The notes under the pieces are model-generated. The model was not told the DNA's origin and ran no database searches. It worked only from the letters and a program-made list of their open reading frames with translations. A stretch of 32,000 nucleotides of DNA from Planctopirus limnophila DSM 3776 (GTDB lineage: Bacteria > Planctomycetota > Planctomycetia > Planctomycetales > Planctomycetaceae), in assembly GCF_000092105.1 (NCBI RefSeq), contig NC_014148.1:3930001-3962000 (forward strand), in the 5' to 3' direction. Positions 5,109 through 25,493 of the stretch are shown here, one piece after another. The position numbers were made by a program, and so were the translations under genes. Numbering within the stretch: position 1 is the stretch's first letter; the number at the start of each line of letters is the position of its first letter.

Positions 5109-5408
5109 ATGACGGTTTTTGAAGAGTCAAGAAATTACCCCGCCAGGATTCGAACGAATGAGTTTTTCCAAGTAGAAAACGCATTTCCAGCGGAATTCCG
5201 GGCACAAACCGGGCAAATCGAGGCACGACTGGAAAACGGGGCAGCGGCCAGCGGGGCGGATGCTCTCGTGGCTGGGTTGATGCATTCTGTTGCCACGGAC
5301 GCCGATCTCCGACGACTGGCGGCGGTTTGGGGACGACTCTCTCCCGATGACCGGCGAGCCCTGGCCAGTCATGCTGAAACCTTGGCGGCGGTAAGCCACT
5401 GCTCGTGA
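5109..5408 (+). CDS. hypothetical small protein (99 aa)
   Basis: Internal ATG of ORF 5001..5408. The C-terminal half (ALVAGLMHSVATDADLRRLAAVWGRLSPDDRRALASHAETLAAV) looks protein-like, and a hairpin plus T tract follows at 5500-5549. There is no recognisable family and it overlaps the tRNA-like fragment. Confidence 0.25.
   Translation: MTVFEESRNYPARIRTNEFFQVENAFPAEFRAQTGQIEARLENGAAASGADALVAGLMHSVATDADLRRLAAVWGRLSPDDRRALASHAETLAAVSHCS
5136..5156 (-). other. tRNA 3'-end-like fragment (T-loop, T-stem 3' half, acceptor 3' half); not an intact tRNA
   Basis: Minus strand reads GTTCGAATCCTGGCGGGGTA. This is the canonical TTCGAATC T-loop context, then 5 nt and 7 nt as in a T-stem and acceptor stem. 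The upstream sequence does not fold into D or anticodon arms. The terminator at 5071-5096 lies about 40 nt downstream on the same strand. Confidence 0.3.
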
Positions 5409-5499: not shown

Positions 5500-5549
5500 T
5501 GAGCCGTTTGCCCCCGATTTGGGAGCAGACGGCTCATTCCTTTTGATTT
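5500..5549 (+). terminator. hairpin plus T-rich tail upstream of the cassette
   Basis: tgagccgt (5500-5507) pairs perfectly with acggctca (5529-5536), with an inner ccc/ggg pairing. It is followed by ttccttttgattt. Confidence 0.35.
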
Positions 5550-5563
5550 CAGGAGAAACGTTC

Positions 5564-5746
5564 ATGTTCATGCTGCTGGCTTTGCTCAGTTTCCTGGTGT
5601 TGGTGAGTTGTCTGGTGATTCGGCGGGAGCGTGTGCTCCGGCAGGCCTGGCAACATCTCGCTGCCCAGATCCTCTCGCGAAGGAATACTCCCGATGCGTC
5701 TTCTGATGTCACTACTGATCGGCACGATGCTGGTTTTGGCCAGTAG
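5564..5746 (+). CDS. hypothetical small membrane protein (60 aa)
   Basis: ATG at 5564 preceded by AGGAGA (5551-5556, 7-nt spacing). MFMLLALLSFLVLVSCLVIRRERV is a single TM helix. It overlaps the next gene by 53 nt in another frame. Confidence 0.3.
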   Translation: MFMLLALLSFLVLVSCLVIRRERVLRQAWQHLAAQILSRRNTPDASSDVTTDRHDAGFGQ

Positions 5747-6191
5747 CTGTCAGGCTCCACCGCCTGCTCAGATTCCACCCGATGTGGGGCGATTTCTCGA
5801 GGCCCAGGCCCAGCAGAACCAGCGACTCGCAGAACTGCAGGCAAGCTGGCAGCAAGAGCGGAAGACACTCTTCGAACAGCGGGATCAACTCGAAGCCGAA
5901 CGAGTGGAACTGGCACGGCTTCGCAATCAGGAACCGGTTGTGGCAGCCGCCATCCTGACGATTGGAGAGCTGATCCTGTGCCTCAGCCCCCTGCTGCTGG
6001 CCGGGATGTTTCTCAAGATGTCGACCCCTCTGACCAGTACGGATCAGCTGGCAGAAGTGTTGCTGCTTCGAGAAGAAACCTCACGACGTGCTGCTGCCCC
6101 GCTGGCACTGCCTCGCGATCCTCAGCGTCCTGCCCCTTCTCTTCCCAGTGCCGCACCCGGCACCACTCCCTCGAAAGGAACCACTGGATGA
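5694..6191 (+). CDS. hypothetical secreted/lipoprotein with coiled coil and C-terminal TM segment
   Basis: An internal ATG at 5694 gives MRLLMSLLIGTMLVLASSCQAPPP (signal peptide with a relaxed lipobox). A Q/E/R-rich coiled coil follows (FLEAQAQQNQRLAELQASWQQERKTLFEQRDQLEAERVELARL), then a hydrophobic helix. The stop overlaps the next start as ATGA at 6188-6191. Confidence 0.5.
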   Translation: MRLLMSLLIGTMLVLASSCQAPPPAQIPPDVGRFLEAQAQQNQRLAELQASWQQERKTLFEQRDQLEAERVELARLRNQEPVVAAAILTIGELILCLSPLLLAGMFLKMSTPLTSTDQLAEVLLLREETSRRAAAPLALPRDPQRPAPSLPSAAPGTTPSKGTTG

Positions 6192-6550
6192 GTCATCTCG
6201 TAACCATAAAAACCCAAGTCAAAGACATTGCGGCCATTCGCCAGGCGTGTGTGCGGCTTCAACTACCGGCTCCGCAGGCAGGGACTGCCCGCATCTACAA
6301 CCAGGAGTGTTCCGGTTGGCTGGTGGAACTGCCGGGATGGCGGTTTCCCGTGGTCTGTCAGACCGAAACTGGCGACCTTCAATACGATAACTTCCAGGGT
6401 CACTGGGGCGATCCCCAGAGACTCGACGCCTTCCTGCAGCATTACGCCGTCGCGAAAGCCACGCTGGAAGCTCATCGTCAGGGCCATACCGTTCAGGAGC
6501 GGCTGGAACAGAATGGGGCCATCCGCCTGACAATCGGTCTGCCTGCCTGA
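6188..6550 (+). CDS. DUF1257 (Ycf35-like) protein
   Basis: MSHLVTIKTQVKDIAAIRQACVRLQL...GWLVELPGWRFPVVCQTETGDLQYDNFQGHWGD...FLQHYAVAKA matches my recollection of the DUF1257/Ycf35 pattern (MSHFSxIKTxIxD...). About 120 aa, translationally coupled to the upstream gene. Confidence 0.75.
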   Translation: MSHLVTIKTQVKDIAAIRQACVRLQLPAPQAGTARIYNQECSGWLVELPGWRFPVVCQTETGDLQYDNFQGHWGDPQRLDAFLQHYAVAKATLEAHRQGHTVQERLEQNGAIRLTIGLPA

Positions 6551-6613
6551 CAGCACCTGTTCGTCATCGACCGTCGTTACTTCGCAGCTCATTCCCTTTT
6601 TGAAGGATTTGCC

Positions 6614-6814
6614 ATGCCTCCCACTCTTGAAGTGCTGGTCGCTCCCGATGGCTCAGTCCAGGTGAAAGCCCAGGGCTTTCAAGGGGCCAGCTGTCGCACA
6701 GCCACTCAGGCACTCATTGCGGCCTTAGGGCTCCCGACTCAGGAGCAACTTCAGCCCGAGTTCTACGCGACGCCCACCACCCACGCCTCGCAGGAGCTTT
6801 CGCAGGGAGCCTGA
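6614..6814 (+). CDS. DUF2997 protein
   Basis: 66 aa. LEVLVAPDGSVQVKAQGFQGASCRTATQALIAALGLPTQEQLQPEFY fits the remembered DUF2997 pattern (I.I.pDG.v...v.G..G..C...t..le..lG). SD GAAGGA at 6602-6607. Confidence 0.7.
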   Translation: MPPTLEVLVAPDGSVQVKAQGFQGASCRTATQALIAALGLPTQEQLQPEFYATPTTHASQELSQGA

Positions 6815-6846
6815 GTCTTCGGCTTCTCATCGCATTACTGAGTTGT

Positions 6847-6889
6847 CGACCCTGCCAGGCCTGTAAGCCTCGTGGGGTCGTGTTGTTTT
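6847..6889 (+). terminator. hairpin with T-rich tail between the DUF2997 and AAA+ genes (possible partial terminator or attenuator)
   Basis: cgaccc (6847-6852) pairs with gggtcg (6875-6880), with an inner aggc/gcct pairing. It is followed by tgttgttttc. Confidence 0.3.
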
Positions 6890-6917
6890 CATCGCCTTTT
6901 TTCCTATGGAGCACTCC

Positions 6918-8396
6918 ATGAGTTTTTCGGAACAGCTGATCGAACATATCCGGGCCGCCTTCAGCGGAATCTGGATTCAGTCCCCTGAAGTGGAAGAAGT
7001 CGAGCGGACACTCATCCGCCTCGCACCCTCCCAGTCCTGGAACCTGGCCGTCTGGGATCTGGCGCAAGGGTTCTGGCGCATGGGGGGTACTGCCAGCCCT
7101 GAGGTCGCCGATCCTCTCTCAGCTCTCAAGGCGTTTGCCACCCTGCGAGATCACGAGACGGCTTCAGCGACTCTGCTGGTCCTGCCAAACTTTCACCGCT
7201 TCCTCCAAAGCCCCGAGATCATCCAGCAACTGGTATCACTCCTCAAGCTGGGGAAGCGGGAGCGGATGTTTGTGGTGATCGTTTCCCCGGTCCTTCAACT
7301 CCCCGTGGAGCTGACCCGGCAGTTTGTGGTACTGGAGTTTCCCCTTCCTGCGGCTGTTGAACTGGGTGAGATTGCCCGGGAACTGGTTTCGGATACTCCC
7401 GATCTCCTTCCCACAGGCCCCGCCTGGAATCAGCTTCTTGATGCGGCAGCGGGATTAACCCGCATTGAAGCCGAAGGGGCGTTCGCTCTCTCACTCACCC
7501 GGCATGGGAACTTCCAGCCCGAAGTGATCTGGGAACTCAAGGCCCAGCTCCTTCGCCAGCAGAACCTCCTGCGGCTTCACCGGGGAAACGAGTCATTCGC
7601 GAATCTCGGGGGACTGGCGTCGTTAAAAACCTTTTGCCGCCAGGCCCTGCGGCCTGGGCGATCAGCCTCGACAGTGAAAGCCCGTGGCGTGTTGCTCCTC
7701 TCGCCGCCTGGTTGTGGAAAGTCGGCTTTCTGCCGGGCGCTGGGGAATGAGACCGGGCGACCAGTCCTCACGCTCGATCTGGGAGCCGTGCTGGGCGGGA
7801 TTGTGGGGGAGACAGAACGCAACATCCGTCAGGCCCTGCAGGTCGTCGATGCCATGGCTCCCTGTGTGCTGTTTGTCGATGAACTCGAGAAAGGACTCGC
7901 AGGAGTCGGTGGAACTGGCGATGCCGGGGTCGCCACCCGGCTGTTTGGGACACTCCTCACCTGGCTCTCCGACCACACGAGCGATGTGTTCTTCGTGGGG
8001 ACTGCCAACCACATCCAGCACCTCCCGCCCGAGTTCACTCGTGCGGAGCGACTCGATGGGATCTTCTTCGTCGATCTCCCCACCAAAGCCCAGCGGCATG
8101 AGATCTGGACGCTCTACCGAAGGCAGTACGACATCAGTGCCAGTGAGCCGATTCCTGCTGACGATGGCTGGACGGGTGCCGAGATTAAGTCCTGCTGCCG
8201 ACTCTCGGCTTTGCTGGGGATTTCCCTCACAGAAGCGGCCCAGCAGGTCGTCCCGGTTTCGAAGACGTCTGCTGAGGTGATCGAACAGCTGCGACAATGG
8301 GCCCATGGGCGTTGCCTCTCGGCCGATCAGGCCGGGATTTATACCCACACCCCGGCTGCCACCTCCCGGCGGAAGGTGACGCCTTCCACCAACTGA
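6918..8396 (+). CDS. Ycf46-like AAA+ ATPase (classic-clade AAA)
   Basis: ATG at 6918 is preceded by GGAG (6908-6911); 6906 is an alternative start. Walker A LLLSPPGCGKS, Walker B CVLFVDELEK, sensor-1 GTAN and the arginine-finger region FTRAERLD are present. The N-terminal MSFSEQLIEHIRAAFSGIWIQSPEVEEVER and the roughly 490 aa length resemble cyanobacterial/plastid Ycf46. Confidence 0.85.
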   Translation: MSFSEQLIEHIRAAFSGIWIQSPEVEEVERTLIRLAPSQSWNLAVWDLAQGFWRMGGTASPEVADPLSALKAFATLRDHETASATLLVLPNFHRFLQSPEIIQQLVSLLKLGKRERMFVVIVSPVLQLPVELTRQFVVLEFPLPAAVELGEIARELVSDTPDLLPTGPAWNQLLDAAAGLTRIEAEGAFALSLTRHGNFQPEVIWELKAQLLRQQNLLRLHRGNESFANLGGLASLKTFCRQALRPGRSASTVKARGVLLLSPPGCGKSAFCRALGNETGRPVLTLDLGAVLGGIVGETERNIRQALQVVDAMAPCVLFVDELEKGLAGVGGTGDAGVATRLFGTLLTWLSDHTSDVFFVGTANHIQHLPPEFTRAERLDGIFFVDLPTKAQRHEIWTLYRRQYDISASEPIPADDGWTGAEIKSCCRLSALLGISLTEAAQQVVPVSKTSAEVIEQLRQWAHGRCLSADQAGIYTHTPAATSRRKVTPSTN

Positions 8397-8437
8397 ACTT
8401 TTTTCCGCTGAATGTTTTTTCCCTTGGAGATCTTCCC

Positions 8438-8692
8438 ATGCGTCGTGCCCGCGAACTCTCGCTCCCCGAACTCCAGCAACTCGTCACAGCGATTCAGGAG
8501 ATTCTCTATCGCGACGAGGATGAGCAAGGCATGCCGTTCTGGAACCCAGAGCGTACCTGGGAGGGAGCCGACGTCTGTGAAGAACTGGGCCAGCTCATGA
8601 CGCACTACGAACTTGTTCCCCTGGATTCAGATACCAACCTTCCCCTCCTGAAAGGAGATATTCCTGATGACACTATTGGCCACCGAATCTGA
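8438..8692 (+). CDS. hypothetical small acidic protein (84 aa)
   Basis: ATG at 8438 preceded by GGAGA (8426-8430): MRRARELSLPELQQLVTAIQEILYRDEDEQGMPFWNPERTWEGADVCEELGQLM... Its 3' end overlaps the next start by 26 nt. Confidence 0.5.
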   Translation: MRRARELSLPELQQLVTAIQEILYRDEDEQGMPFWNPERTWEGADVCEELGQLMTHYELVPLDSDTNLPLLKGDIPDDTIGHRI

Positions 8693-9635
8693 GACAGACA
8701 CTTCGACTCCCGCTTCCCGCCCTCTGGCGCGGGAACTCCGCGAACTGACGACGGCGGTACGCGTCAGCTTTCACTGGCTGGGCACCAGCCGGACACTGAC
8801 TCACAGCCAGAAGGCTCAGGCCGCTGAACCCTTTGGAGCGGCTGAGAAATTCCTGTCAGCGGGTAAGAAGCTCTTTGACACGAGTGCTCCTGCTTACCGG
8901 AATGTGACCGCCGTCCGCAGCAAGATCATCCAGTACTGGAAAAGCACTTCACTCCCGTTCCCTGAACCCGGCTTGCGGCTGATCCGCAAGGAACGGATCA
9001 ATACTTTCGATGCTCAACTGGAAGCATTCCGTGAAGAACTCGATCGGGCAGTGCGGGAACTGGATGCCGAGTTCGACGATCTCAAGCGGCAGGCCCGGCA
9101 GCGGCTGGGTTCGCTGTTTGATCCCAGTGATTATCCCACCGCTTTGAGACACGAGTTTGGGGTGGAATGGGATTATCCCAGTGTTGCCCCGCCCGAACAC
9201 CTCCAATCGATCGCCCCCGAGCTTTATGAGCGGGAATGCGCCCGGGTCTCGGCCCGGTTCGAGGAAGCGATCCAATTGGCAGAGACGGCCTTTCTGGATG
9301 AATTTAATAGCCTGGTGTCGCATCTGTGCGAACGGATCTCTGGCAGTGGGGATCAAGCCCCAAAAGTGTTCCGGGATTCGGCTGTCTCCCGGCTGCATGA
9401 GTTCTTCCAGCGGTTCAAAGAACTCCAGATTGGTTCTCACGACCAGCTCGAAACGCTCGTTGAGCAGGCTCAAGGGCTGCTGAAAGGGGTGTCTCCGCAG
9501 GCGCTGCGGGATCAACCCAGCCTGCGGCAACAGCTCTCCCGGCAGATGGGAGCGGTTCAGTCGCAGCTCGATCAACTCCTTGTTGATCGACCCCGCCGCT
9601 CCATCGTTCGTCCTCGATCTTCCGAGGAGGCCTGA
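8667..9635 (+). CDS. hypothetical alpha-helical protein, possibly DUF3150-like
   Basis: 322 aa. ATG at 8667 preceded by AAGGAG (8652-8657). The pattern VRVSFHWLGTSRTL...GKKLFD...RSKIIQYW...RLIRKERINTFDAQLEAFREELDRAVRELDAEFDDLKRQA...LFDPSDYP loosely matches my memory of DUF3150 proteins from plasmids and ICEs. Not verified. Confidence 0.6.
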   Translation: MTLLATESETDTSTPASRPLARELRELTTAVRVSFHWLGTSRTLTHSQKAQAAEPFGAAEKFLSAGKKLFDTSAPAYRNVTAVRSKIIQYWKSTSLPFPEPGLRLIRKERINTFDAQLEAFREELDRAVRELDAEFDDLKRQARQRLGSLFDPSDYPTALRHEFGVEWDYPSVAPPEHLQSIAPELYERECARVSARFEEAIQLAETAFLDEFNSLVSHLCERISGSGDQAPKVFRDSAVSRLHEFFQRFKELQIGSHDQLETLVEQAQGLLKGVSPQALRDQPSLRQQLSRQMGAVQSQLDQLLVDRPRRSIVRPRSSEEA

Positions 9636-9636
9636 T

Positions 9637-9888
9637 ATGGATCTGCGCACCACGGACCTGCTGGTTCAACCCGATGGTTCAGTGACGACCCTCTACACGG
9701 AAGTGATCGATCTGGCGGCTCTGGGCCTCTTGCAGATCGAACGGGCCAGTGATGTCGAACCTGACAGCACGGGCCACTGGTGGGCCCAGTTGCGGGAAGG
9801 GCCGAAGCTGGGGCCGTTTGATCGGCGGAACCAGGCCCTGCAGGCCGAAGTCGACTGGCTGCTGGAGCATCGCCTCCTGAAGCACTGA
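9637..9888 (+). CDS. hypothetical small protein (83 aa)
   Basis: ATG at 9637, 1 nt after the upstream stop and preceded by GAGGAGG (9624-9630): MDLRTTDLLVQPDGSVTTLYTEVIDLAALGLLQIERASDVEPDSTGHWWAQL... Confidence 0.5.
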   Translation: MDLRTTDLLVQPDGSVTTLYTEVIDLAALGLLQIERASDVEPDSTGHWWAQLREGPKLGPFDRRNQALQAEVDWLLEHRLLKH

Positions 9889-9914
9889 ATTCTTCCTTCT
9901 CAAAGACGGTTCTT

Positions 9915-9969
9915 CACTCCCCGGTTCTCGCGGCTGTTTCGGCAGCGTGAGAGACGGGGAGTTTTTTTG
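9915..9969 (+). terminator. intrinsic terminator (long imperfect hairpin plus T7)
   Basis: actcccc (9916-9922) pairs with ggggagt (9956-9962), with partial internal pairing. A run of seven T follows immediately. Confidence 0.5.
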
Positions 9970-10011
9970 TTGGCTGAAACAACACTGCTTCTCGAAAGGA
10001 GCCTCTCCCTC

Positions 10012-10194
10012 ATGACTCGACATGAACTCGAACGAGCTATTTCTGAAACGACGGGCGATGACCTCGCGGTGATCCATCAGCGAGGGTTCGAACTGATTGA
10101 TCTTTCGCCACCTCTGGCCGACGACGAACTGCTGGATCTCTACCTCGACTGGGATGCCCTTCACCTGTCAGTCGCTGGCTGTCGTAACGGCTGA
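10012..10194 (+). CDS. hypothetical small acidic protein (60 aa)
   Basis: ATG at 10012 preceded by AAGGAG (9996-10001): MTRHELERAISETTGDDLAVIHQRGFELIDLSPPLADDELLDLYLDWDAL... Confidence 0.4.
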   Translation: MTRHELERAISETTGDDLAVIHQRGFELIDLSPPLADDELLDLYLDWDALHLSVAGCRNG

Positions 10195-10304
10195 ACTCGA
10201 ACAACCTGTCGATCACCTGAACCGACCTGCTCTCACTCTGACACAGTGGGGGCGGGTGTTTGTGTTTCTCATCCTGCTTAATCTCTTCCCTCGAAAGGTG
10301 TTCC

Positions 10305-11552
10305 ATGCTGCTCTTCACACGCGGCGAAGCCCGCCGGGTATTGGCAGTGCTTCGTAAAGCGGGACTGGTCAACTTCTCCCGCCGCATTCAACCCCCAATC
10401 ACACTGGTGCAAGCCGGATCGCAGTTGCGAATCCTCTGTGCCACGAAAGACTGCTGGGGCCTTTGGGAACGCGAACCTGGCTCTCACGAAACCCGCTCCA
10501 GCACACCCTCAGAACCTGTCACCCGCGTCACTGTCTCGGCGGAACTCCTGCGGGAATGTCAGGGGTCTGATGCCGAGGTCGTCACACTGGAAATCGATCA
10601 GGACATCGTGAAGGCAAGTTGGTCTGTTTCGGGATTTGCGGTCGAGCGGGAGTTTCCGGTGTTCGATGCCCCCGACGAGCATCTCTTCCAGCATCCCCGG
10701 GAATACTTCTCGTGTCCGCCAGAGTTCCTGAGTGCCTTGCGGCAGGTGATGGCAGTCCGAGACAGTGCCAGCACGCGGTATGCCCTCAACTGCGTTCAGC
10801 TAAGTGGCTCCCGTCAGCAGCTGGCGGGGACCGATAGCCAAAAACTCTTGATTCACCGGGGAATTCAGCTCCCGTGGCCTGAGGATCTCCTTGTGCAGGG
10901 TACAGATCTGCTCGAAGCTCTTGAGTTGCAGCGAGTCAAAACGGTGCGAATGGGCCGGACAGAACACGATCTCGTGCTGCAATTGGGGCACTGGACAGTC
11001 GGGCTCAAGCTCAACACGGAGTCCCACTATCCGCCGGTGGATCGTGTGGTGCCGTGGCTCTCTGACGACGCGACACGGCTGGAACTCCATCCGCTCGATG
11101 CCACCCGGCTGGAGGAACTGCTGCACCGGATGCTCGAAACCTGTTCCAGCCGATTGCCCACCATGCATCAGCCGCTGACAGTCGATCTTACGGGCGATGT
11201 CCCGATCGTCCGTTGCCGCACGAATCACTCTCCCCGGGCCACGGAAATCCGCCTGAGCCGTTCCTCACGCCATGGCCTGCCCGGAAAGGTCTGTCTGGAA
11301 ACCCGGTTCCTGGTATCGGCCCTCGAAATGGGATTCCAACAACTGGCATTCCACAAAAGTGACTCGCCTGTGCGGCTGGACCAGCACCAGCGGATCTACA
11401 TCCTCATGCCACTCGACCCCGACAGCTTGATCCCACCGGGTGACGATCATGTGATCACCACCGGTCCGGAAGCGGAGGAGGTGGATCGAGCCCCTGTGTT
11501 CGATCAGAAACAGGAATCACCCCTCCGCCGTACAGAACTGGCAATCGCTTAA
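10305..11552 (+). CDS. divergent DNA polymerase III beta sliding-clamp (DnaN)-like protein
   Basis: 415 aa from the ATG at 10305. RYALNCVQLSGSRQQLAGTDSQKLLIH parallels the DnaN RYYLNG...ATDGHRLA motif. HYPPVDRVVP parallels GRFPDYRRVLP. VCLETRFLVSALEMG parallels IGFNVSYVLDVLNAL, and the C-terminal RIYILMPLDP parallels AYVVMPMRL. These are comparisons with recalled E. coli DnaN segments, in the same order and with similar spacing. Confidence 0.65.
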   Translation: MLLFTRGEARRVLAVLRKAGLVNFSRRIQPPITLVQAGSQLRILCATKDCWGLWEREPGSHETRSSTPSEPVTRVTVSAELLRECQGSDAEVVTLEIDQDIVKASWSVSGFAVEREFPVFDAPDEHLFQHPREYFSCPPEFLSALRQVMAVRDSASTRYALNCVQLSGSRQQLAGTDSQKLLIHRGIQLPWPEDLLVQGTDLLEALELQRVKTVRMGRTEHDLVLQLGHWTVGLKLNTESHYPPVDRVVPWLSDDATRLELHPLDATRLEELLHRMLETCSSRLPTMHQPLTVDLTGDVPIVRCRTNHSPRATEIRLSRSSRHGLPGKVCLETRFLVSALEMGFQQLAFHKSDSPVRLDQHQRIYILMPLDPDSLIPPGDDHVITTGPEAEEVDRAPVFDQKQESPLRRTELAIA

Positions 11553-11602
11553 ATCAATCGCTGCTGCAGATCGTCCACTACACAGTCACACCTGCTCAGG
11601 TC

Positions 11603-11641
11603 GCAGAGGGATCCCTCTGCGGCCCGGGCTGGTTTCTTTTT
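11603..11641 (+). terminator. terminator candidate: perfect 18-nt palindrome, a second GC palindrome, then a T tract
   Basis: gcagagggatccctctgc (11603-11620), then ggcccgggc, then ggtttcttttt. Confidence 0.4.
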
Positions 11642-11649
11642 AGCTGTCA

Positions 11650-12410
11650 GTGAGTTGCTCTGGAAGGCTCTTACAACCGCTGGAATCGGCTTGAGGTGCC
11701 AATACAAATCAGGGTCTTACCAAAATCCACGTGTTGAATGTCATCAAGGCACAAAAATTTGGAATCAGGCTAAATGGTCGATGATGAATCTCCTGTGCAT
11801 GGTCCCGTTGAAGATTGGGCTTCTGCAGAAGATGAAATCATAAAAGGGTTCATCTCGTCCCACTTCAATGAGTTAAGATCGAGATTCTCAGGGTTTCGCG
11901 CGCGAGTTCTCCATGACGAATTGTCGTTTGCCTTAAGGAGACAGGTTGCACGCAAACTGGCAATCTTCGCCAACCAGCGTTACTGATTTTGAACGAGGCC
12001 TCAGGAAGACCTCGGAAGCGTCCACGAACGTTGTATGCTGACGCAGGCTACAACAGTGAAGCTGCTCGCCAGGCACTCCAAGGTCGCGGCATCATCCCCC
12101 ACATACGCTGCAGAAACACCGCCCACGGAGGTAGACTGGGAAAAATTCCTGTGAAGTCACAAGACAGAGGTGGTGGAACGTACCATTAGTTGGCACGGCG
12201 GGCTGGGCATTTTCCGCATTCGCTACGACCGGCATCAGCAAATCATCCACGCCTGGAACCACCTGGCACTCGCTGCCCTCTGTTATTGCGTGCTGATCAG
12301 GACACCAACCCAAACTTTTAATCAACAAAGCGGTTTTTGTCAGGCTCTAAGAGTGAACTGCTGCTATTCGACAAAACAGCACAATACCCCCAAAAGTCGA
12401 AATACCTAAG
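11650..12410 (+). mobile_element. decayed IS5-family insertion sequence remnant (copy A)
   Basis: AT-richer stretch with broken ORFs. The C-terminal transposase portion is recognisable (see the pseudogene 11989..12409). The upstream part is only weakly transposase-like, and no clear terminal inverted repeats were identified. Confidence 0.4.
11989..12409 (+). pseudogene. IS5-family DDE transposase, C-terminal portion, frameshifted and N-terminally truncated
   Basis: Two frames: ...GRPRKRPRTLYADAGYNSEAARQALQGRGIIPHIRCRNTAHGGRLGK... then ...VERTISWHGGLGIFRIRYDRHQQIIHAWNHLALAALCYCVLI. This matches the ADxGYDS...GIxPxI...ERxxSWL...RYE/D pattern of IS5-family transposases. There is a 1-nt indel relative to copy B near 12150-12175. 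Confidence 0.7.
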
Positions 12411-12413
12411 CCC

Positions 12414-13100
12414 TCATTGAATACGATTTAGCGTAGGTACTCTTCCTTGCTCATTTCTCTGAAGTTGGCGGACTTCTGCGAGCACTCGATGTGTAATCGT
12501 AAGTTGCAGCAGTTCTGCCAGGCTTTGAACTTTGAGTTTTCTCATCAGGCGCTGACGACGCAGTTCAATGGCTCGTTCAGAGATAAACAGTCTGGTAGCC
12601 ATACCTTTATTGCTTTCTCCCTGCAGGATGAGATCCAGCGTCTCGATATCTGTCGCACTCAATTCTTGAACGGCGGTTTCGAGCCGCTCGAATCGCGACT
12701 CACTTTGCCGCCATGCTGCATCCAGTTCGAGGGCTTGAGCGACGAGCTTTAATAGTCGCTGCGACTCAAATGGCTTCTCCAGAAATTCTATAGCTCCTGA
12801 TTTCATGGCCGTGACCGCGATTTCGACGCTCGCATGTGCTGTCATGAAAATCACCGGCAGACGTCGGCCTTGTAGCAGGAGCTGTTGATAGAGTTCCAGG
12901 CCCCCAATTCCCGGCATGCGGATATCTAACAGCAAACAGCCGGGTTGTGTCTGTTGATACTTCGAAGCGAAATCATCTCCGCTGACGAAACTACGCACTA
13001 CATACCCCGAAGCGCGGAGCAACGTCACAACGGAATCGCGCAGATCCTCGTCGTCGTCAACGACAAAAACTGTGGGCGACATTACTGGGGGAATTGTCAT
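12414..13100 (-). CDS. FixJ/NarL-type response regulator (REC plus LuxR-type HTH)
   Basis: TVFVVDDDEDLRDSV...LLLDIRMPGIGGLELYQQL...PVIFMTAHASVEIAVTAMKSGAIEFLEKPF (REC), and LSATDIETLDLILQGESNKGMATRLFISERAIELRRQRLMRKLKVQSLAELLQL (LuxR/FixJ HTH). The start is at ATG 13100 or 13082; both overlap the 3' end of the kinase gene. Confidence 0.85.
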   Translation of the reverse strand: MTIPPVMSPTVFVVDDDEDLRDSVVTLLRASGYVVRSFVSGDDFASKYQQTQPGCLLLDIRMPGIGGLELYQQLLLQGRRLPVIFMTAHASVEIAVTAMKSGAIEFLEKPFESQRLLKLVAQALELDAAWRQSESRFERLETAVQELSATDIETLDLILQGESNKGMATRLFISERAIELRRQRLMRKLKVQSLAELLQLTITHRVLAEVRQLQRNEQGRVPTLNRIQ

Positions 13101-15018
13101 GAATAACTGCCAATTTGAAACTGACGCGTGCACCACCTGAGGAATTGTTTTCCAGGGTCAACTCACCGGAATGTGAATGAATGAGAGTTTGACTGATCGA
13201 CAACCCCATGCCGAGGCCATCCGATTTCGTGGTGTGAAAAGGAAAGGGTCCAGTCGTGAGCCAATTGTCCTGGAAACCCGGGCCTGTATCTTCAACCACC
13301 AGGACGAGTTTTTTATCTTCCTGGAAAGAGGTGATCGTCAATCGCCGGGGAAGATCAGAAACTCCACTCATGGCCTGAATCGAATTGCGGATCAGATTCA
13401 TGAGAACCTGCTGAATCTGGACGGCATCGCCCTGGAAACAAAGATCTTCGGAATCACTGGTGTTTTTCGCCACTTCGATTCGTTGTTCAGACAATTCGTT
13501 CGAGCAAAGTGCGAGAACCTCTTCGATTAGCGGGTTGATCGACAACAATCTCATTTCACTTTTGGATGTGCGCAAAAATGACCGCATGCGGTTCACGATC
13601 GATCCCGCTCTCAATGCGGCATCGCGAATACGACTGGCGATCCGTGCGGCTTCATCAGATTGCTGATCCGGGTTTTGCAGTACGAGAGGGAGTGCTTCAG
13701 AATAGGCCGCAATCGCGCCCAACGGCTGATTGATTTCATGTGCTATACCCGTGGCCAATTGGCCCAGGCTGGTGACGCGGTTGGCATGGGCGAGTTGAAT
13801 CATTAATCGCCGGGAATTTTCCTCGGCGAGATTCCGTTCTTTAATCTGGTGCATCAGTTCGTCGTTGGCGTCGCGGAGTTCACCTGTTCGCAGTGCCACG
13901 CGTTCTTCCAATTCGCGGTGTGCATCCTTGAGCCGGTCTTCCGCCAGTTTTCGATCTGAAATATCTGTCACTATCAGGAACAACGCCTTGGCACCATGAT
14001 CGTCGAGTTCCTGATATCCAACGGCTGTCAAAGTGATGCATTTCAGCGACGCGGGGAGTTGCCACTCAATTTCACAGGGAGATGAGGAACAGACATTGGC
14101 ACTGAGCAAAAGCATCTTCAGTTCTGCTTGAGATGGAAGAGCCGCCAAACTGACGATGTCGCTTCCTTTGAGTTCATCAACAGTTCGAAACAAAATCTGA
14201 GCGAATCGGTCATTCACATAGTGGATGCGATGATCATTGTCGAGCACGACCAGTCCGTCATGCATTCGCTCGATAAGCGAACGAAATTGTGTTTCGCTGA
14301 TTCTCATTCGCTGCCATTGCGAACGAATCAGTTCATTGGCCGGTTTGAGCACTAGCCACGACAACGCCACCATGGCAGAAAGCGCACCCAGCATTAACGC
14401 AAGGCTCAAACCCCTGAGCCAACTCACCTGCTCGATTGCCACGATCTGGAACAGATCAACAACCCGCTCCATCTGCTCAAGATACCCGGGCTCGGCTGCC
14501 AACAACTGGATCGCGACCCTCTGGTCATCAGTTGTCAAAACGGGTATCTGAGGAGTGCCGGAAACATCACTATCAATGGTAGATCGCTTCTCGCCCGGGA
14601 TGCTGGCGGATTGGATGGCTTGTTCCCCCGCTTGCGACAGCTTCTGGAAGTGAGGCTGAAGCTCGGCAAATGCGTGGAGAATTCTGGCATCCCTGACTGG
14701 AGGTAACCCCAATTGAGCGTCGCCAAGCAAAAGTCCTGTGTGAACAGTCTTCCAGCGATCTAACGAGTCCCGCAATTCCCTTCGCCAATATTCCGCCTTC
14801 GAAGGATCAAGATCGATGGCAAGGGCCGCTTTGGTCATCCGCTGGCTGAGCATGCGCTGTCGGCCCGCGAGATTGATCACCGGCCCAAAGCCGTTGAGCC
14901 GAAAAAGCAATGGTTGCAGCAGGGCTTGATCGACGAGAAGCAACGAAGCGACTACCACCAAGACAACGAAATATCGCCGCCCCAGGCCTTGAATCAGTTT
15001 TTCCGATTCCTGCGTCAT
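13057..15018 (-). CDS. sensor histidine kinase with NarX/PilJ-type periplasmic sensor, PAS domain, HisKA and HATPase
   Basis: The ORF opens with TTG at 15021, then ATG at 15018. One TM segment precedes INLAGRQRMLSQRMTKAAL, the P-box-like motif of NarX/NarQ/PilJ N-terminal sensor domains. A second TM, a PAS-like region (ERMHDGLVVLDNDHRIHYVNDRFAQIL), the H-box LATGIAHEINQPLGAI and an ATPase domain (NLIRNSIQAM...VEDTGPGF...GLGMGLSISQTL) follow. Confidence 0.85.
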   Translation of the reverse strand: MTQESEKLIQGLGRRYFVVLVVVASLLLVDQALLQPLLFRLNGFGPVINLAGRQRMLSQRMTKAALAIDLDPSKAEYWRRELRDSLDRWKTVHTGLLLGDAQLGLPPVRDARILHAFAELQPHFQKLSQAGEQAIQSASIPGEKRSTIDSDVSGTPQIPVLTTDDQRVAIQLLAAEPGYLEQMERVVDLFQIVAIEQVSWLRGLSLALMLGALSAMVALSWLVLKPANELIRSQWQRMRISETQFRSLIERMHDGLVVLDNDHRIHYVNDRFAQILFRTVDELKGSDIVSLAALPSQAELKMLLLSANVCSSSPCEIEWQLPASLKCITLTAVGYQELDDHGAKALFLIVTDISDRKLAEDRLKDAHRELEERVALRTGELRDANDELMHQIKERNLAEENSRRLMIQLAHANRVTSLGQLATGIAHEINQPLGAIAAYSEALPLVLQNPDQQSDEAARIASRIRDAALRAGSIVNRMRSFLRTSKSEMRLLSINPLIEEVLALCSNELSEQRIEVAKNTSDSEDLCFQGDAVQIQQVLMNLIRNSIQAMSGVSDLPRRLTITSFQEDKKLVLVVEDTGPGFQDNWLTTGPFPFHTTKSDGLGMGLSISQTLIHSHSGELTLENNSSGGARVSFKLAVIHDNSPSNVAHSFCR

Positions 15019-15203
15019 CAACCCGTTTCTCTGAGGACAGTCCAGCGTGCGTTCTTACGAGAGATTGAAAAACGAACTGACCGTTGGAGACATACCAGTT
15101 TCGTGAATCCAACTTTCCACCAGTCATTGCTGAATAATTATCGATGAAAACTGCGTGCCGAAGCCGTTATGAACACATGCCTCGATCGAGTGTGAATTAC
15201 ATT

Positions 15204-15353: not shown

Positions 15354-15584
15354 AAATGGAGCCTTCTTCGTTCTTTGGAATCAAAGCTGCCTGAATCTGA
15401 GTTGCCGCTGCATCAGATCTAGACCATTTCTCCCTTGAGGCCCCTCCAGAGAGAGTGAGCCGAAATCAATGATCAGTGAGTCATCCACCGGTCTTCCATC
15501 TGGGGTGTTGCTCCGAGGGAAGCACGACAGTCGCTCGTCGTCAGGGTGGATAGGAAGTTGTTCACGCACGACAAGGCTCATTCA

Positions 15585-16961
15585 ATGACCACCTCCGCCA
15601 AAGCGACATCGATCCGGCTGTGGGATTTCAAGACCCCACCCATGCGTGCGTTCCACATGTCCTGGTTCGCGTTTTTTCTGTGTTTTTTCGCATGGTTCGG
15701 CATCGCACCACTGATGCCAGTCGTTCGCGATGAAATGCACCTCAGCAAGGATCAGGTGGGCTGGTGCATTATTGGATCGGTCGCGATCACAGTTCTTGCG
15801 CGGCTCTATGTCGGCTGGCTTTGCGACCGGATCGGCCCCCGTCTGGCATATAGCGGGCTGTTGGTGCTCGCTTCAATCCCTGTGATGGGAATCGGACTGG
15901 CCCACGATTTCACGACGTTTTTAATGTTCCGCATCGCGATCGGTGCCATCGGTGCGTCGTTTGTGATCACGCAGTATCACACTTCGATCATGTTTGCAAA
16001 GAACTGTGTTGGCACAGCAAACGCCACTACTGCCGGTTGGGGGAATCTTGGGGGCGGGGTGACGCAAATGGTCATGCCCACGCTCTTTGCACTTCTCATG
16101 GTCGCGTTCGGGTTGTCAACGGCCAGTTCTTGGCGATTCTGTATGCTGCTGGCCGGAGTGGTCTGCGCTATCACGGGGATCGCTTACTTTTTCCTCACGC
16201 AGGATACTCCAGAGGGAAACTTTGCAGAGCTTCGCGCTACTGGGAAAATGTCTCAAAAGTCGGCAGTCAAGGGAACGTTTCAAGAAGCTTGTCGCGACTA
16301 CCGCGTCTGGATTCTGTTTCTCGTCTATGGGGCCTGTTTCGGGATGGAACTGACGCTCGACAACATCGCGGCACTCTATTTCATCGACTATTTCGAAGAG
16401 CTGAAAACGGCTGATCCAGTCTACGCGCTGGGCATCGCAGGGTTCGTTGCAGGACTCTTTGGTTCAATGAACCTCTTCGCCCGCGCGCTGGGCGGCATCG
16501 CTTCAGATCGGTGTGCGGCGAAGTGGGCCCTGTCGGGCCGGGTCCGCTGTCTGTTCATTGTCGTCCTGCTGGAAGGGATGGCTCTTATGCTCTTCTCGCA
16601 GGCCCGAACCTTGCAGTTTGCCATTCCCGCGATGCTGCTATTAGGTCTCTTTGTCAAAATGTCGAATGGGGCGACTTATGCGGTCGTGCCATTCATCAAC
16701 AAGCGGGCACTCGGTTCGGTCTCCGGGATCGTTGGAGCCGGTGGAAATGCGGCGGCTGTCGCGGCTGGATTTCTTTTCAAAAGTTCGGTGGTGTCCTGGC
16801 CGACGGCTCTGTTCATTCTCGGGGTGATCGTGACGCTGGTATCAGTCAGCATACTAGCCATCCGCTTCGCGCCTCAAATCGAAAGCGAAGAGGCCACGCT
16901 TCCGATCCTGACAGGAGACGAGGCGGCCCCCGTTTTACCAGCCGGTGTCCAAGCTGTGTGA
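15585..16961 (+). CDS. narK: MFS nitrate/nitrite transporter (NNP family, NarK/NrtP type)
   Basis: ATG at 15585; the track ORF opens at GTG 15546. MRAFHMSWFAFFLCFFAWFGIAPLMP is a typical N-terminus. Both NNP signatures are present (TTAGWGNLGGGVTQ and SGIVGAGGNAAAV), with about 12 TM segments. Confidence 0.85.
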   Translation: MTTSAKATSIRLWDFKTPPMRAFHMSWFAFFLCFFAWFGIAPLMPVVRDEMHLSKDQVGWCIIGSVAITVLARLYVGWLCDRIGPRLAYSGLLVLASIPVMGIGLAHDFTTFLMFRIAIGAIGASFVITQYHTSIMFAKNCVGTANATTAGWGNLGGGVTQMVMPTLFALLMVAFGLSTASSWRFCMLLAGVVCAITGIAYFFLTQDTPEGNFAELRATGKMSQKSAVKGTFQEACRDYRVWILFLVYGACFGMELTLDNIAALYFIDYFEELKTADPVYALGIAGFVAGLFGSMNLFARALGGIASDRCAAKWALSGRVRCLFIVVLLEGMALMLFSQARTLQFAIPAMLLLGLFVKMSNGATYAVVPFINKRALGSVSGIVGAGGNAAAVAAGFLFKSSVVSWPTALFILGVIVTLVSVSILAIRFAPQIESEEATLPILTGDEAAPVLPAGVQAV

Positions 16962-16990
16962 GCTTCAATGAAATCACTCCTGTCTCCTGA

Positions 16991-17041
16991 TGCAGGATCC
17001 CGTGATCGGAGCAGTCGCTCGCGCCGTTCGCGGATCCTGCA
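16991..17041 (+). other. 10-bp perfect inverted repeat (hairpin, 31-nt loop) in the narK / Fe-S gene spacer
   Basis: tgcaggatcc (16991-17000) and ggatcctgca (17032-17041). Confidence 0.4.
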
Positions 17042-17204
17042 CTCGAAATCCCTCATGAGAAGGACACTCATCGAAGCTTTGAGGAAGGATGTGAACTTTG
17101 AATCGTGCGTTCGCGAATCACATGCCCTTCGGAAGACCTCAGAGACGTGCCACCCCTGGGCAACCATTTTGTTCGAAAAGACCTCCGTTTGAGAGTCCGG
17201 TCGT

Positions 17205-18989
17205 ATGAGCGACGCGTTGCCAATCACGAGGCCTCTGAGTCTGCAAGATCTGCTGGAAGGCTTCGGATCGGTCTCCGCGCCGCCTTCGAAAGGCGAGCAG
17301 ATGGTTCACCGACTGTTGCAAAAACAGCGGGAGCTCTCGGCCGTCGAACTCTTCGCAAAGGAGCACGCCGGTGGGACGATCAACGGCAGCAAATTACCCG
17401 ATCAGGCCCGTTTCTATGCCAGTCTGCTGCCTGCGACGCCCGTGGGCCCGGGGCAGCAGTACGGCTTCGAAGTCGATCTCGATCGCTGTTCGGGTTGTAA
17501 GGCCTGTGTGACAGCTTGCCACTCTCTGAACGGGTTGGATGATTCGGAGACTTGGCGCGATGTAGGATTACTCATCGGCGGAACCGAGACGCTTCCCGTG
17601 ATGCAGCATGTGACAGCCGCCTGCCATCATTGCCTTGAACCGGCCTGCATGACCGCCTGCCCGGTAAACGCCTACGAAAAAGACGCCTTCACGGGTATCG
17701 TCCGGCATCTCGATGATCAATGCTTCGGCTGCCAATACTGCACGCTGGCCTGTCCCTACAACGTCCCCAAGTACCACGCTGCCAAGGGGATCGTCCGCAA
17801 GTGCGACATGTGTTCCAACCGCCTGAAAAATGGCGAAGCACCGGCCTGTGTACAGGCATGCCCTCATGAGGCCATCTCTATCCGAATCGTCGATGTGTCG
17901 CGGGTCACCGAAAATGCGGAGGCAGACCACTTCCTCCCCGCTGCTCCCGAACCTTACATCACTCTACCGACAACCACGTACAGGACGACGCGGGTCTTTC
18001 CCCGCAATATGCTCCCGGCGGATTACTATTCGGTCAGCCCGCAACATCCCCATTGGCCATTAATCGTGATGCTGGTGCTGACACAGCTTTCGGTTGGAGC
18101 ATTCGCAGCGGGCAGTTTCCTGGAAGAGGCACTTGATACAGAACTCGCCACCGCTTTTCGTCCCATTCATGCAACAGGCGCACTCGTGCTGGGTTTGCTG
18201 GCACTGGGAGCCAGCACGCTTCATCTGGGACGGCCACTCTACGCTTTCCGAGGGATTCTGGGATTTCGGCATTCCTGGCTCAGCCGGGAAATCGTGGCCT
18301 TTGGATTATTTGCAGGTCTCGCTGTACCGTTTGCCGGGCTTTGCTGGGGATTGCCACTGCTGGAGGTCTCGGGCAGTCCCTGGGGGAAACTGGCTGGTGA
18401 ACTCCTCCCGACATTGTCACCGAGTGTCGCGTGCGTGGGAGTTATCGGTGTCTTCTGTTCGGTGATGATCTACGTCTTCACCAGAAGGGAACTCTGGTCG
18501 CTGGAGCGAACTTTGATCCGCTTTAGCCTCACGACGATACTTCTGGGCGTGGCGACAATCTGGCTGATGATGTGGCTGGCCGTTGGTTTTTTGAGCGATG
18601 ACGAGTGGCATCAGCTTGCTCAAAACTTGACTCGCCCTTTGGCCCGCTCGGTAATCATCCTGACCACACTCAAGCTGCTTTACGACATCTCGCTGCTGCG
18701 GCATCTGGCGACATTCCGCAATTCGCCGCTCAAGCGATCGGCACTCCTGGTTGTCGGCCCGCTGAGAGGTTTTTCCATCGGACGGCTCGTGTTGGGAGTC
18801 GTTGGAGGCGTGGTCATCCCCGCAGCCTTTGCGGCCGTTCCGATTCATGACCCGATCCAGTTCACAACGACATCGGCCGTTTTCGTGGGGCAGATGTGGG
18901 TTGCCTGCCTGGGGGGAGAATTGCTCGAGCGTTATCTGTTCTTCTCCGCTGTGTCGAACCCGCGTATGCCCGGAGGAGTGCGTTCATGA
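17205..18989 (+). CDS. fusion of a DmsB-like 4Fe-4S multicluster ferredoxin domain and a DmsC/NrfD-like integral membrane anchor
   Basis: 594 aa. The Cys clusters are [37 protein letters not shown] and [21 protein letters not shown]. The C-terminal half has about 8 hydrophobic helices with HLGRP and SWLSREI motifs, as in DmsC-type anchors. No twin-arginine signal is present. Confidence 0.8.
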
Positions 18990-21211: not shown

Positions 21212-21426
21212 ATATTGACGCGTTTCGTTCCTCGTCGCGTAGTACGTTCCTGAATCCTCGAAGGGTGTGGTCTTGGGCAATTGGTGGCCTGGGTTGAGCA
21301 TCTTCGCGAACCCCTAACTCCTGCCAACCAGCGCTGAGGGTTCGAAGACTCACTGACAACCACCCGTCGACCCTGGCCGCCGATTCCAATCACGTGAATT
21401 GATCCCTTTTCAAGTGGTGCTTTTCC

Positions 21427-23274: not shown

Positions 23275-23321
23275 GCCGATAATCTCCGACCAGTTTCCCC
23301 ACATCTTTGGGAGTACAAGAT

Positions 23322-24999: not shown

Positions 25000-25242
25000 T
25001 CAGAATTGATCGGTTAAGAGGGATGCGAGCCAGAGGAAGCCTGCGAAGTTCGCGGCTTTCTTATCATAACGGGTGGCGATGCGGCGAAAGCGTTTCAGGG
25101 CTCCGAAGAACCTCTCGATCACATTCCGATGCCGGTAGCTCTCCTTGACGCACCGCTTTCTTGCCTTGCGGTTGGCCTTCGGTTTGATGCAGGCTTTCGC
25201 CCACATCCGCTTCACACGCAGCCGGATCGCGTAGGTGCCCAA
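25000..25242 (-). pseudogene. IS5-family (IS427-like) transposase, C-terminal fragment
   Basis: ...CIKPKANRKARKRCVKESYRHRNVIERFFGALKRFRRIATRYDKKAANFAGFLWLASLL is the conserved YxxRNxIERFFxxLKxFRRIATRYDK C-terminus. Only about 80 codons remain, and it abuts copy B at 25243/25245. Confidence 0.7.
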
Positions 25243-25244
25243 AA

Positions 25245-25493
25245 ATGCTGTTCTCCGACGTAGGCAATGACAGTGAAGCCGCTCGTCAGATACCCCTGGC
25301 TCGTGGCATCATCCCCCACATTCGCCGCAGAAACACCGCTCATGGAAGTGCACTGGGAAAAACTCCGGAAAGTAACAATACAGAGGTGGTGGAACGCACC
25401 ATCAGTTGGCTGGCAGGCCGTGGCCGCTTCCATGTTCGCTACGACCGCCATCAGCAGATCATCCCACCTGACCCACGCAGCCCACTGTTTTGA
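25245..25493 (+). pseudogene. IS5-family DDE transposase fragment (copy B, related to 11989..12409)
   Basis: ...SDVGNDSEAARQIPLARGIIPHIRRRNTAHGSALGKTP...VERTISWLAGRGRFHVRYDRHQQII. In a hand alignment against copy A, 68 of 84 checked nucleotide positions were identical. It is truncated at both ends. Confidence 0.7.

Follow-up and report, generated by a model that had tools for sequence, protein, structure and literature searches.

The described systems closest to the one reported here include the ycf46, ycf35 and DUF2997 genes found in cyanobacteria and plastids (the name ycf35 is that of a plastid gene), whose own role is poorly known (CO2 use, stress checkpoint). We analyzed a stretch of 32,000 nucleotides (nt) of the Planctopirus limnophila DSM 3776 chromosome (contig NC_014148.1, positions 3,930,001 to 3,962,000; the window, to which all coordinates below refer). 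Within 5564-11552 it holds ten genes on the same (+) strand, here called g0 to g9, which form a cassette around an AAA+ ATPase (g4), with a divergent DUF1257 protein (g2), a DUF2997 protein (g3), a protein indirectly assigned to the DUF3150 fold (g6), a predicted sliding-clamp homolog (g9) and further products. Like the ycf46/ycf35/DUF2997 sets, the cassette combines a DUF1257-like protein and DUF2997 with an ATPase of about 500 amino acids (aa), which consists of an N-domain and a single AAA module. Unlike the cassette, those sets are without DUF3150, g7/g8 and the clamp, and they are chromosomal or plastid genes. One homolog of g4 carries the JGI label 'SpoVK/Ycf46/Vps4 family', which is a label only. 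On cyanobacterial plasmids, DUF1257, DUF2997 and a full-length relative of g4 occur together, and the ATPases are 30-33% identical over their full length.

Other described systems share single features with the cassette. The PRTRC system (ParB-related, ThiF-related cassette) and the 'Ub-like/JAB/E1' mobile operons, the latter described in 2006 (PMC1779556), are also borne by mobile elements and uncharacterized, and planctomycete relatives of the cassette carry PRTRC-like ThiS, JAB and ThiF genes directly after the core. However, there is no PRTRC gene in the window, and no ParB partner was seen. Membership in PRTRC was rejected, since the ThiF, JAB and ThiS of the relatives stayed under the cut-offs (ThiF with 33 bits against 145 for PRTRC_ThiF) and the cassette proteins had no NCBIfam PRTRC match. 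The ATPase-DUF3150-VWA trio of proteobacterial plasmids also places a DUF3150-fold protein beside a predicted ATPase on a mobile element, but the ATPase is a different and shorter one (~341 aa), the partner is a VWA protein, and DUF1257, DUF2997, g7 and the clamp are absent. The best PADLOC match of the g4 AAA module (62 bits) is IetA of the IetAS anti-phage system, which was reportedly described by Gao et al. in 2020. Membership in this system was rejected as well, because the match covers residues 260-434 only, the NCBIfam IteA model gave 59 bits against a cut-off of 510, and the cassette has no IetS protease and shares none of the partners.

The neighborhood of a ring-clamp fold gene and an AAA+ ATPase gene on a mobile element recalls bacterial DnaN with its clamp loader, and also the phage-encoded clamps that exist, such as T4 gp45 with gp44-62. 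In contrast to these modules, the ATPase here is a predicted classical-clade unfoldase, there is no Pfam DnaN match, and no polymerase lies alongside; the cassette does not qualify as a clamp-loader/DnaN replication module. Eukaryotic and archaeal Cdc48-p97 with ubiquitin tagging is comparable in its Cdc48-D2-like module and in the genomic link of the cassette relatives to genes for ubiquitin-like proteins (Ubl), E1 and JAB. Yet the cassette ATPase has only one AAA ring, its N-domain is unrelated, and the comparison is an analogy only. The full-text literature on DUF1257, DUF2997 and DUF3150 and their Pfam accessions gave incidental mentions only, and no publication on the gene combination was found; an earlier reading of the window made from its letters alone (the sequence-only reading) had likewise known of no described function for it. 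Judged from its sequence, the cassette as a gene system matches no described kind.

The segment is best explained, as far as can be read from DNA and predicted proteins, as a complete, still-functional copy of a widespread mobile-element module, which consists of a core and one of two alternative downstream add-ons. The core comprises g2 (6188-6550, 120 aa), g3 (6614-6814, 66 aa), g4 (6918-8396 with an alternative start at 6906, 492 aa), g6 (8667-9635, 322 aa), g7 (9637-9888, an 83-aa acidic protein whose gene always adjoins g6) and g8 (10012-10194, 60 aa, very acidic with a pI of 4.3). The add-on is the clamp gene g9 (10305-11552, 415 aa; Plim_3046). A scan with the g6 profile, one genome per species, gave at least 463 confirmed relatives, and 80 of these were sampled together with 8 from IMG/VR (88 loci; L-numbers are locus labels). 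Presence was counted with family hidden Markov models (HMMs) built from the sampled loci, and the denominators are the loci with enough flanking room. The order DUF1257-DUF2997-AAA-DUF3150L-g7-g8 was conserved in the 88 related loci, so the genes are clustered rather than scattered in relatives, and the copies lie at different sites, on plasmids, IMG/VR contigs and a phage rather than at one fixed core-genome locus. The g7 gene was present in 75 of 78 loci, g8 in 61 of 71, the ATPase in 52 of 62, and DUF1257 and DUF2997 in 40 of 52 each. Small-gene conservation, on which the sequence-only reading had also depended, therefore held for g7 and g8 but not for the 84-aa g5 and the 60-aa transmembrane g0, which are patchily conserved; homologs of g0 were found in 2 loci only, and the g1 family in 8 of 45. 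Searches returned thousands of homologs each for the ATPase and the DUF3150-like protein, and the planctomycete relatives found were 55-65% identical.

After the core comes either the clamp or a ubiquitin-like set. The clamp was present in 25 of 56 loci and may be followed by a 169-aa protein, c6 (18/49), and a PD-(D/E)XK Cas4-like nuclease (18/44), while the other set consists of ThiS (17/56), a Cys-rich protein (17/55), JAB (15/49) and ThiF (13/44). The two sets are nearly mutually exclusive, with the clamp only in 17 loci, the Ubl set only in 13, both in 1 and neither in 13. In about one third of the related loci (e.g., L066, L077, L083, L090 and L046), the clamp is replaced, ~1-6 kb 3' of the g6 homolog, by a ThiS-like Ubl, a cysteine-rich protein of ~360 aa, a Prok-JAB peptidase and a ThiF-type E1, a PRTRC-like set for ubiquitin-type conjugation. 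Extra genes are also inserted at a variable spot in the cassette, between the ATPase gene and g6. A 227-aa family, c11, is inserted between DUF2997 and AAA in 9 of 52 loci (L053, L058, L065, L087 and L090 among them); the 'IVEGxxD' at its start resembles a Toprim motif when read by eye. Neither Pfam nor the PDB gave a match for c11, and c6 had no PDB sequence match. At L104 (1-3064), the gene directly 5' of a clamp-type cassette encodes a Cas3-like helicase, and g6 and g7 are separated by an adenine glycosylase gene.

Copies of the cassette occur more than once per genome and on different replicons. P. limnophila itself has at least two; the second is intact, 76% identical at the ATPase, and has the same gene order. 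Planctomycetales bacterium 10988 has at least three, which are 93-94% identical over ~5-6 kb of the cassette only and have unrelated flanks. Large serine recombinase genes, at times two or three in tandem, lie directly 5' in several loci. The Schlesneria copy is flanked by tRNA-Arg, DNA_pol_A and VapE/DUF5906 primase-helicase genes at one end and by SNF2 and DUF1016 at the other. On Manganitrophus plasmids, AAA, DUF1257, DUF2997, DUF3150 and g7 (E 2e-16) stand in a row, and their neighbors are CHC2-primase-finger, UvrD, recombinase and JAB genes. The ATPase and DUF2997 genes also occur together on plasmids of Thermovibrio, Geminocystis and Paenarthrobacter; the DUF1257 partner is annotated in Geminocystis only, is an unannotated g2-like open reading frame (ORF) in Thermovibrio and is marginal in Paenarthrobacter. 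Just 5' of DUF1257, the Geminocystis plasmid has an RloB-family gene. The cultured Tunturiibacter phage Tunturi_3 encodes the ATPase (gp103, HMM E-value 1e-91), DUF2997 (gp101), a g7-like protein (gp99) and a DUF3150-like protein (gp96, E 6.5e-54), and its cassette region also has ligase, exonuclease and Cas4 genes. Relatives are also found on IMG/VR contigs. On proteobacterial plasmids, DUF3150 accompanies the different ~341-aa ATPase and VWA, near toprim, ParB or methylase genes, and only ~5 kb separate the trio of Cupriavidus pRK1-1 from PRTRC A, B and ThiF. No phage structural genes were among the 25 most frequent of 113 Pfam families in 149 neighboring proteins. About 6 kb 5' of the cassette on a Planctomicrobium piriforme contig from a metagenome-assembled genome (MAG), L065 (29-802), there are seven tRNA genes within 800 bp; phages and large mobile elements typically have such dense tRNA clusters. 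Thus, three marks of an integrated element, namely variable site, multiple copies per genome and presence on other mobile replicons, were all found.

The state of the window copy was evaluated against a related MAG contig, L010, which is collinear with the window at 88-90% identity from within the ATPase gene through the clamp into the two-component genes, the difference being limited to ~0.8 kb of insertion sequence (IS) debris. From this collinearity, the insertion would predate the split of the two lineages. At synonymous divergence (dS) of 0.18-0.60, the ratio of nonsynonymous to synonymous divergence (dN/dS) between the two copies was 0.04 for the ATPase, 0.025 for g6, 0.12 for g7, 0.04 for g8, 0.16 for the clamp and 0.40 for g5, and all cassette reading frames are intact. 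The carrier element is eroded, but the cassette is whole, and these values indicate that purifying selection acts on it. The sequence-only reading had proposed a module on a decayed mobile element, and this stands for the surrounding element, which is gone, but not for the cassette.

The ATPase g4 is 100% identical to a P. limnophila DSM 3776 protein recorded as 'AAA ATPase central domain protein'. It scored 92.6 bits against PF00004, and its closest PDB relatives were NVL, AFG2 and the D2 module of Cdc48/p97 (E 1e-39 to 1e-41). Its N-domain (about residues 1-215) precedes one classical-clade AAA module and is kept in relatives from other phyla and in phrog_8638, which matched g4 over the full length (E 3e-86). 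In the alignment, Walker A and B, sensor 1 and the arginine fingers are conserved (GPPGCGKS, DELEK, GTAN and RAERLD), and the pore-loop position reads I/L/F/Y/H-V-G (hydrophobic-Val-Gly). We therefore class g4, by predicted protein, as a Cdc48-D2-like AAA+ ATPase of the classical clade with a family-specific N-domain, the clade that had also been named beforehand. Assignment to the clamp-loader clade was rejected, as there were just partial matches to RFC large-subunit models (E 0.08).

Of the two small partners, g3 matched Pfam DUF2997 (PF11211) over the full model (1-47) with 61.5 bits (E 6.7e-17), well above the gathering cut-off of 24.1, so the DUF2997 call made from the letters was right. 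For DUF1257, 15 of 25 g2 orthologs matched the family at E<0.01 (best 2.6e-5), but g2 itself reached 16.2 bits against PF06868 (DUF1257/Ycf35), below the gathering cut-off of 22.2, and over the C-terminal part only. In addition, g2 shares 33% of 117 aa (E 3e-21) with an unannotated ORF that adjoins a DUF2997 gene on a Thermovibrio plasmid; g2 also matched phrog_20456 and had no match to PDB sequences. For the 322-, 415-, 83-, 84- and 60-aa products, Pfam, NCBIfam and PADLOC gave no match of value. A common N-terminal hairpin motif, 'hydrophobic-x-hydrophobic-x-P-D-G-S-V', is seen in g7 (9637-9690) and in DUF2997 (6614-6665). The idea that g7 is a DUF2997 paralog was rejected, because hhalign aligned 15 columns at 21% probability, which is not evidence of homology.

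The assignment of g6 is indirect. No match to Pfam DUF3150 (PF11348, cut-off 24.9 bits) was found even at E<=10, and none of 25 g6 orthologs matched it at E<=0.01. However, g6 is 33% identical to a Manganitrophus plasmid gene (tblastn E 1.8e-32), which itself scores 37.7 bits on PF11348, and a Cupriavidus gene annotated as DUF3150 matched the g6 family HMM (E 1e-28). The AlphaFold2 model of g6, with a predicted local distance difference test (pLDDT) score of 79, matched a phage 'DUF3150 domain-containing protein' in BFVD (E 2.3e-12) at a template modeling (TM) score of 0.64-0.70, while against solved structures Foldseek on the PDB gave a best E-value of 0.39 and no PDB sequence matched. Transitive homology and the BFVD structure match thus point to a DUF3150-fold protein, in agreement with the label 'DUF3150-like' that had been given before, although without a direct Pfam match. 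At the C-terminus of g6 (9560-9635), a basic tail, D-R-P-R-R-x-I-x-R, is invariant in all 65 aligned relatives and looks like a docking peptide. On the Manganitrophus plasmids CP114554 (L007 10117-11003) and CP114562, the DUF3150 gene is split by a frameshift into two annotated ORFs, and on a third, CP114559, the DUF3150 match is in one unbroken piece.

The AlphaFold2 model of g9 (pLDDT 84.8, predicted TM score 0.80) was compared with the PDB by Foldseek. The entire top 50 consisted of DnaN chains (E 1e-21, ~390 aligned columns, TM 0.66-0.78), and the g9 profile matched Pol III beta in the PDB at E 2.7e-7. Identity to DnaN is 12-19%, and no Pfam DnaN (DNA_pol3_beta) model matched g9 or any of 25 orthologs. 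On the strength of the predicted structure, g9 is confidently placed by fold as a three-domain DnaN-type sliding-clamp homolog, and the beta-clamp-like ring protein of the sequence-only reading is borne out with the caveat that it has no Pfam match. In a 50%-identity library, at least 1155 representatives of the family were found at E<1e-30, and g9 is without the C-terminal helix of ~60 aa that most members carry. The clamp gene was always within this cassette, both in the surveyed loci and in three separately looked-up contigs. All three of these contigs have ORFs of the size of g6, g7 and g8 directly 5' of the clamp, the sole one with upstream room also has AAA and DUF2997, and two of the three have a PDDEXK_1 nuclease 3'.

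A second, independent gene caller, applied to public contigs of this strain, gave the same ten genes, in agreement with the approximately ten ORFs noted at first. Besides the core and the clamp, the cassette contains g0 (5564-5746), a 60-aa basic product with a single membrane span read by eye; g1 (5694-6191, 165 aa), with a signal- or lipoprotein-like peptide at the N-terminus (by eye) and a C-terminal hydrophobic span; and g5 (8438-8692), a weakly constrained 84-aa acidic ORF. The products of 66, 84, 83 and 60 aa (g3, g5, g7 and g8) have a pI of 4.3-4.8, which fits the remark that several products are very small and acidic. A purine-rich Shine-Dalgarno-like motif lies 10-16 nt 5' of all ten starts (AGGAG at four, GGAG at two and AAGGA/AAGG at four); for the ATPase, this motif favors ATG 6918, the start of the 492-aa product on record, over 6906. 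The tight couplings described earlier proved exact, with an ATGA overlap of the g1 stop and g2 start at 6188-6191, a 26-nt overlap of g5 and g6 (8667/8692) and a 1-nt gap between g6 and g7 (9635/9637).

Strong folds were also obtained at the three sites where hairpin/T-tract terminators had been read, all on the + strand. They are a hairpin with a T-rich tail 5' of the cassette at 5500-5549 (hairpin 5500-5536; -27.7 kcal/mol, z -6.8), a hairpin with a T7 tract between g7 and g8 at 9916-9970 (hairpin 9916-9962; -33.2 kcal/mol, z -5.8) and a hairpin with a T-tract at the 3' end of the cassette at 11590-11642 (hairpin 11590-11633; -32.7 kcal/mol, z -4.8). At each site, 0 of 200 shuffles folded as well. 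A generic terminator scan omitted these three hairpins, and the 5 sites that it did report did not exceed the 7.2 expected by chance. Two extra hairpins were seen, one with a T-rich tail at 6848-6890 (hairpin 6848-6880, z -3.4) between the DUF2997 and ATPase genes, and one at 10225-10257 with a GTTTGTGTTT tail (site to 10267) directly before the clamp gene. These may be attenuators or internal terminators that subdivide the two proposed transcription units, 5564-9888 and 10012-11552. A sigma-70 promoter scan gave 0 sites, a scan that is uninformative for a planctomycete.

The genes around the cassette are ordinary chromosomal ones. On the left are a FAD oxidoreductase, a DUF1559 pilin-like protein and a XylR/AraC-type regulator, and on the right a LuxR-type response regulator, a PAS histidine kinase, an MFS transporter, a molybdopterin oxidoreductase, a nitrite/sulfite reductase and a flavoprotein reductase. 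The genes at 15546-24986 (MFS transporter, 4Fe-4S/DmsC-like protein, molybdopterin oxidoreductase, NIR_SIR reductase and FAD/NAD reductase) are likely a nitrate/nitrite assimilation cluster, ahead of which a PilJ-PAS histidine kinase and the LuxR-type regulator lie at 12414-15021. Both features that the sequence-only reading had pointed out at the edges of the cassette were recovered. On the left, a 20-nt tRNA 3'-end fragment, GTTCGAATCCTGGCGGGGTA, lies at 5136-5155 on the minus strand and, compared with the T-arm consensus, consists of the T-loop and the acceptor 3' strand. A terminator-like hairpin (5098-5078) follows downstream on the same strand. The fragment is possibly an attachment-site scar. 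ARAGORN and Rfam detected no intact tRNA or Rfam family in the window, a second copy of the 20 nt was not found within it, and direct repeats flanking the cassette were short matches not beyond chance. Attachment repeats at related loci were rejected too, since tRNA genes lie near 4 loci without a partial duplicate within 10 kb. Between the start of the xylR-like gene and the tRNA fragment there is a 39-nt inverted repeat (4912-4950/5003-5041, 82% complementary, 52-nt spacer).

On the right, the IS remnants are real but small. A frameshifted fragment of a DDE transposase gene of IS4/IS5 type lies at 11989-12295 (+), of which 11989-12189 matched DDE_Tnp_1 at 21.4 bits, below the cut-off of 23, and a 257-nt stretch at 12040-12295 has a 76%-identical counterpart elsewhere in the window, at 25257-25500. 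The latter belongs to a second patch of IS debris at 25000-25500, which includes the C-terminal fragment of an IS5-like transposase on the minus strand (25000-25242) and coincides with a GC drop from ~57% to ~49%; bases 25000-25097 also match the post-clamp spacer of L010. Base composition was rejected as an island marker: the cassette has 58-62% GC compared to 51% rightward, but the left flank is equally GC-rich, so that GC does not delimit the element. No relic of a recombinase, nuclease, ThiF, JAB, ThiS or ligase gene was detectable in the whole 32-kb window, and paired attachment repeats with a recombinase gene were likewise not found in it. The statement that no nuclease, integrase or partition gene is visible thus holds for all 32 kb, while relatives have serine recombinases 5' and the Cas4-like nuclease 3'.

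The two candidate roles named by the sequence-only reading, element replication or maintenance and conflict, are also our two leading hypotheses, and neither is proven. We favor, at a probability of roughly 40%, a mobile-element accessory machine for DNA transactions, which would serve the replication, recombination or establishment of the element's DNA. The ATPase would be a hexameric, ATP-driven protein remodeller or unfoldase, and its N-domain would select the client together with the two small DUF proteins (DUF1257 and DUF2997). The DUF3150 protein with g7 may be the client or a co-factor, because the DUF3150 gene adjoins a predicted ATPase gene in all settings examined. The clamp would tether the machinery to element DNA, and in the fuller relatives it would act with c6 and the Cas4-like nuclease in end processing or recombination-dependent replication. 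A role in DNA transactions or establishment is favored because the neighbors include primase-helicase, PolA, ligase, UvrD, toprim and exonuclease genes. Several results weigh against it. No replication initiator, polymerase, recombinase or nuclease is encoded in the window, and the ATPase falls in the classical and not in the clamp-loader clade. The clamp family was not found by tblastn in PLSDB plasmids or INPHARED phages, and the clamp add-on may therefore be confined to chromosomal islands. Furthermore, the neighbors beyond the cassette are heterogeneous and include defence-type DUF3375, a methylase and a Cas3-like gene, and the core is joined to the ThiS/JAB/ThiF set equally often as to DNA enzymes, so that a protein-targeting or conflict role fits as well.

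The main rival, an anti-phage or anti-plasmid conflict system, is possible, if on balance doubtful. Here the core would act as sensor or trigger, and the downstream modules, which are interchangeable, would serve as effectors, with the clamp and Cas4-like nuclease acting on invading DNA or Ubl/E1/JAB tagging the proteins of the invader. The near exclusion of the clamp and Ubl modules (17, 13, both 1) suits such a design, as do the island setting with more than one copy per genome, the cargo inserted between the AAA and DUF3150 genes, the neighboring DUF3375, DNA methylase and Cas3-like genes, the IetA-like AAA module (62 bits) and the action of Ubl/E1/JAB operons in phage defence elsewhere (PMC11601596, PMC10097602). 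On the other hand, no PADLOC model matched any non-ATPase component; the IetA/IteA likeness is limited to a generic AAA module (59 bits vs the cut-off of 510) and comes without an IetS partner; and the copies in the window and in 10988 end at the clamp with no enzymatic effector. The core is carried by phage and plasmids, and an identity of 55-65% across the planctomycete relatives found is unusually high for defence genes. Another rival is an anti-defence or establishment module acting on cell entry, in which host proteins would be stripped or inactivated by the unfoldase with its partners and the clamp variant would compete with host DnaN. The phage genes adjoin DNA-metabolism genes (ligase, exonuclease, Cas4), and on proteobacterial plasmids, two of three of which were typed as conjugative, DUF3150 and its ATPase lie among toprim, ParB, orphan-methylase and toxin genes. 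Such a mix is typical of plasmid leading or establishment regions. We nevertheless regard this role as unlikely, since no known anti-defence family was detected and purifying selection persists in a chromosome that lost the rest of the element, which is hard to explain for a pure entry function.

A further rival is an operon for stress or proteostasis of the host, similar to the ycf46 operon and the ycf35-DUF2997 pair of cyanobacteria. DUF1257 (ycf35) and DUF2997 are neighbors in cyanobacteria (PMC4284462), in Synechococcus a ycf46 AAA operon of three genes acts as a stress checkpoint (bioRxiv 10.1101/2025.07.21.665879), and the window cassette is fixed in the chromosome with its right side syntenic with a relative. 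Yet several genomes have more than one copy, plasmids and phage carry the genes, serine recombinases are adjacent, flanks vary between copies and the three 10988 copies share only ~6 kb, all of which makes a host operon quite improbable. Least probable of all, and by our estimate very improbable, is that the cassette no longer has a function and is the inert remains of a dead prophage or island. The window indeed has no recombinase, and the cassette is bordered by IS fragments (right) and a tRNA scar (left), but all frames are intact, the 76%-identical paralogous cassette is also intact, and this reading is disfavored because dN/dS is low (0.03-0.16 over dS 0.18-0.60 vs the relative).

A bolder proposal, which we also hold to be unlikely, is a new machine class. 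It would consist of a Cdc48-type unfoldase with DUF1257 and DUF2997 as adaptors and DUF3150/g7 as partner, targeted either via a private clamp (with the Cas4-like nuclease) or via a ubiquitin-like set. In eukaryotes, p97 'segregase' logic links protein extraction to PCNA/chromatin or to ubiquitin tags. If true, the proposed machine would be a bacterial counterpart of this logic, used by or against mobile elements.

The module is abundant, its core is common to plasmids of four other phyla and a cultured acidobacterial phage, and none of its non-ATPase parts has an assigned function. Solving it would give roles to DUF1257/Ycf35, DUF2997 and DUF3150, the first two of which are also cyanobacterial. 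It would also explain the need of a mobile element for a private DnaN-type clamp, and show what stands behind the coupling, in bacteria, of a Cdc48-like unfoldase to DNA enzymes in some cases and to ubiquitin-like tagging in others. Should the module act in defence or anti-defence, it would be a large new family for that field. To our knowledge, planctomycete mobile elements are almost unstudied, and if the module acts in replication or establishment, it would be a new accessory machinery of these elements.

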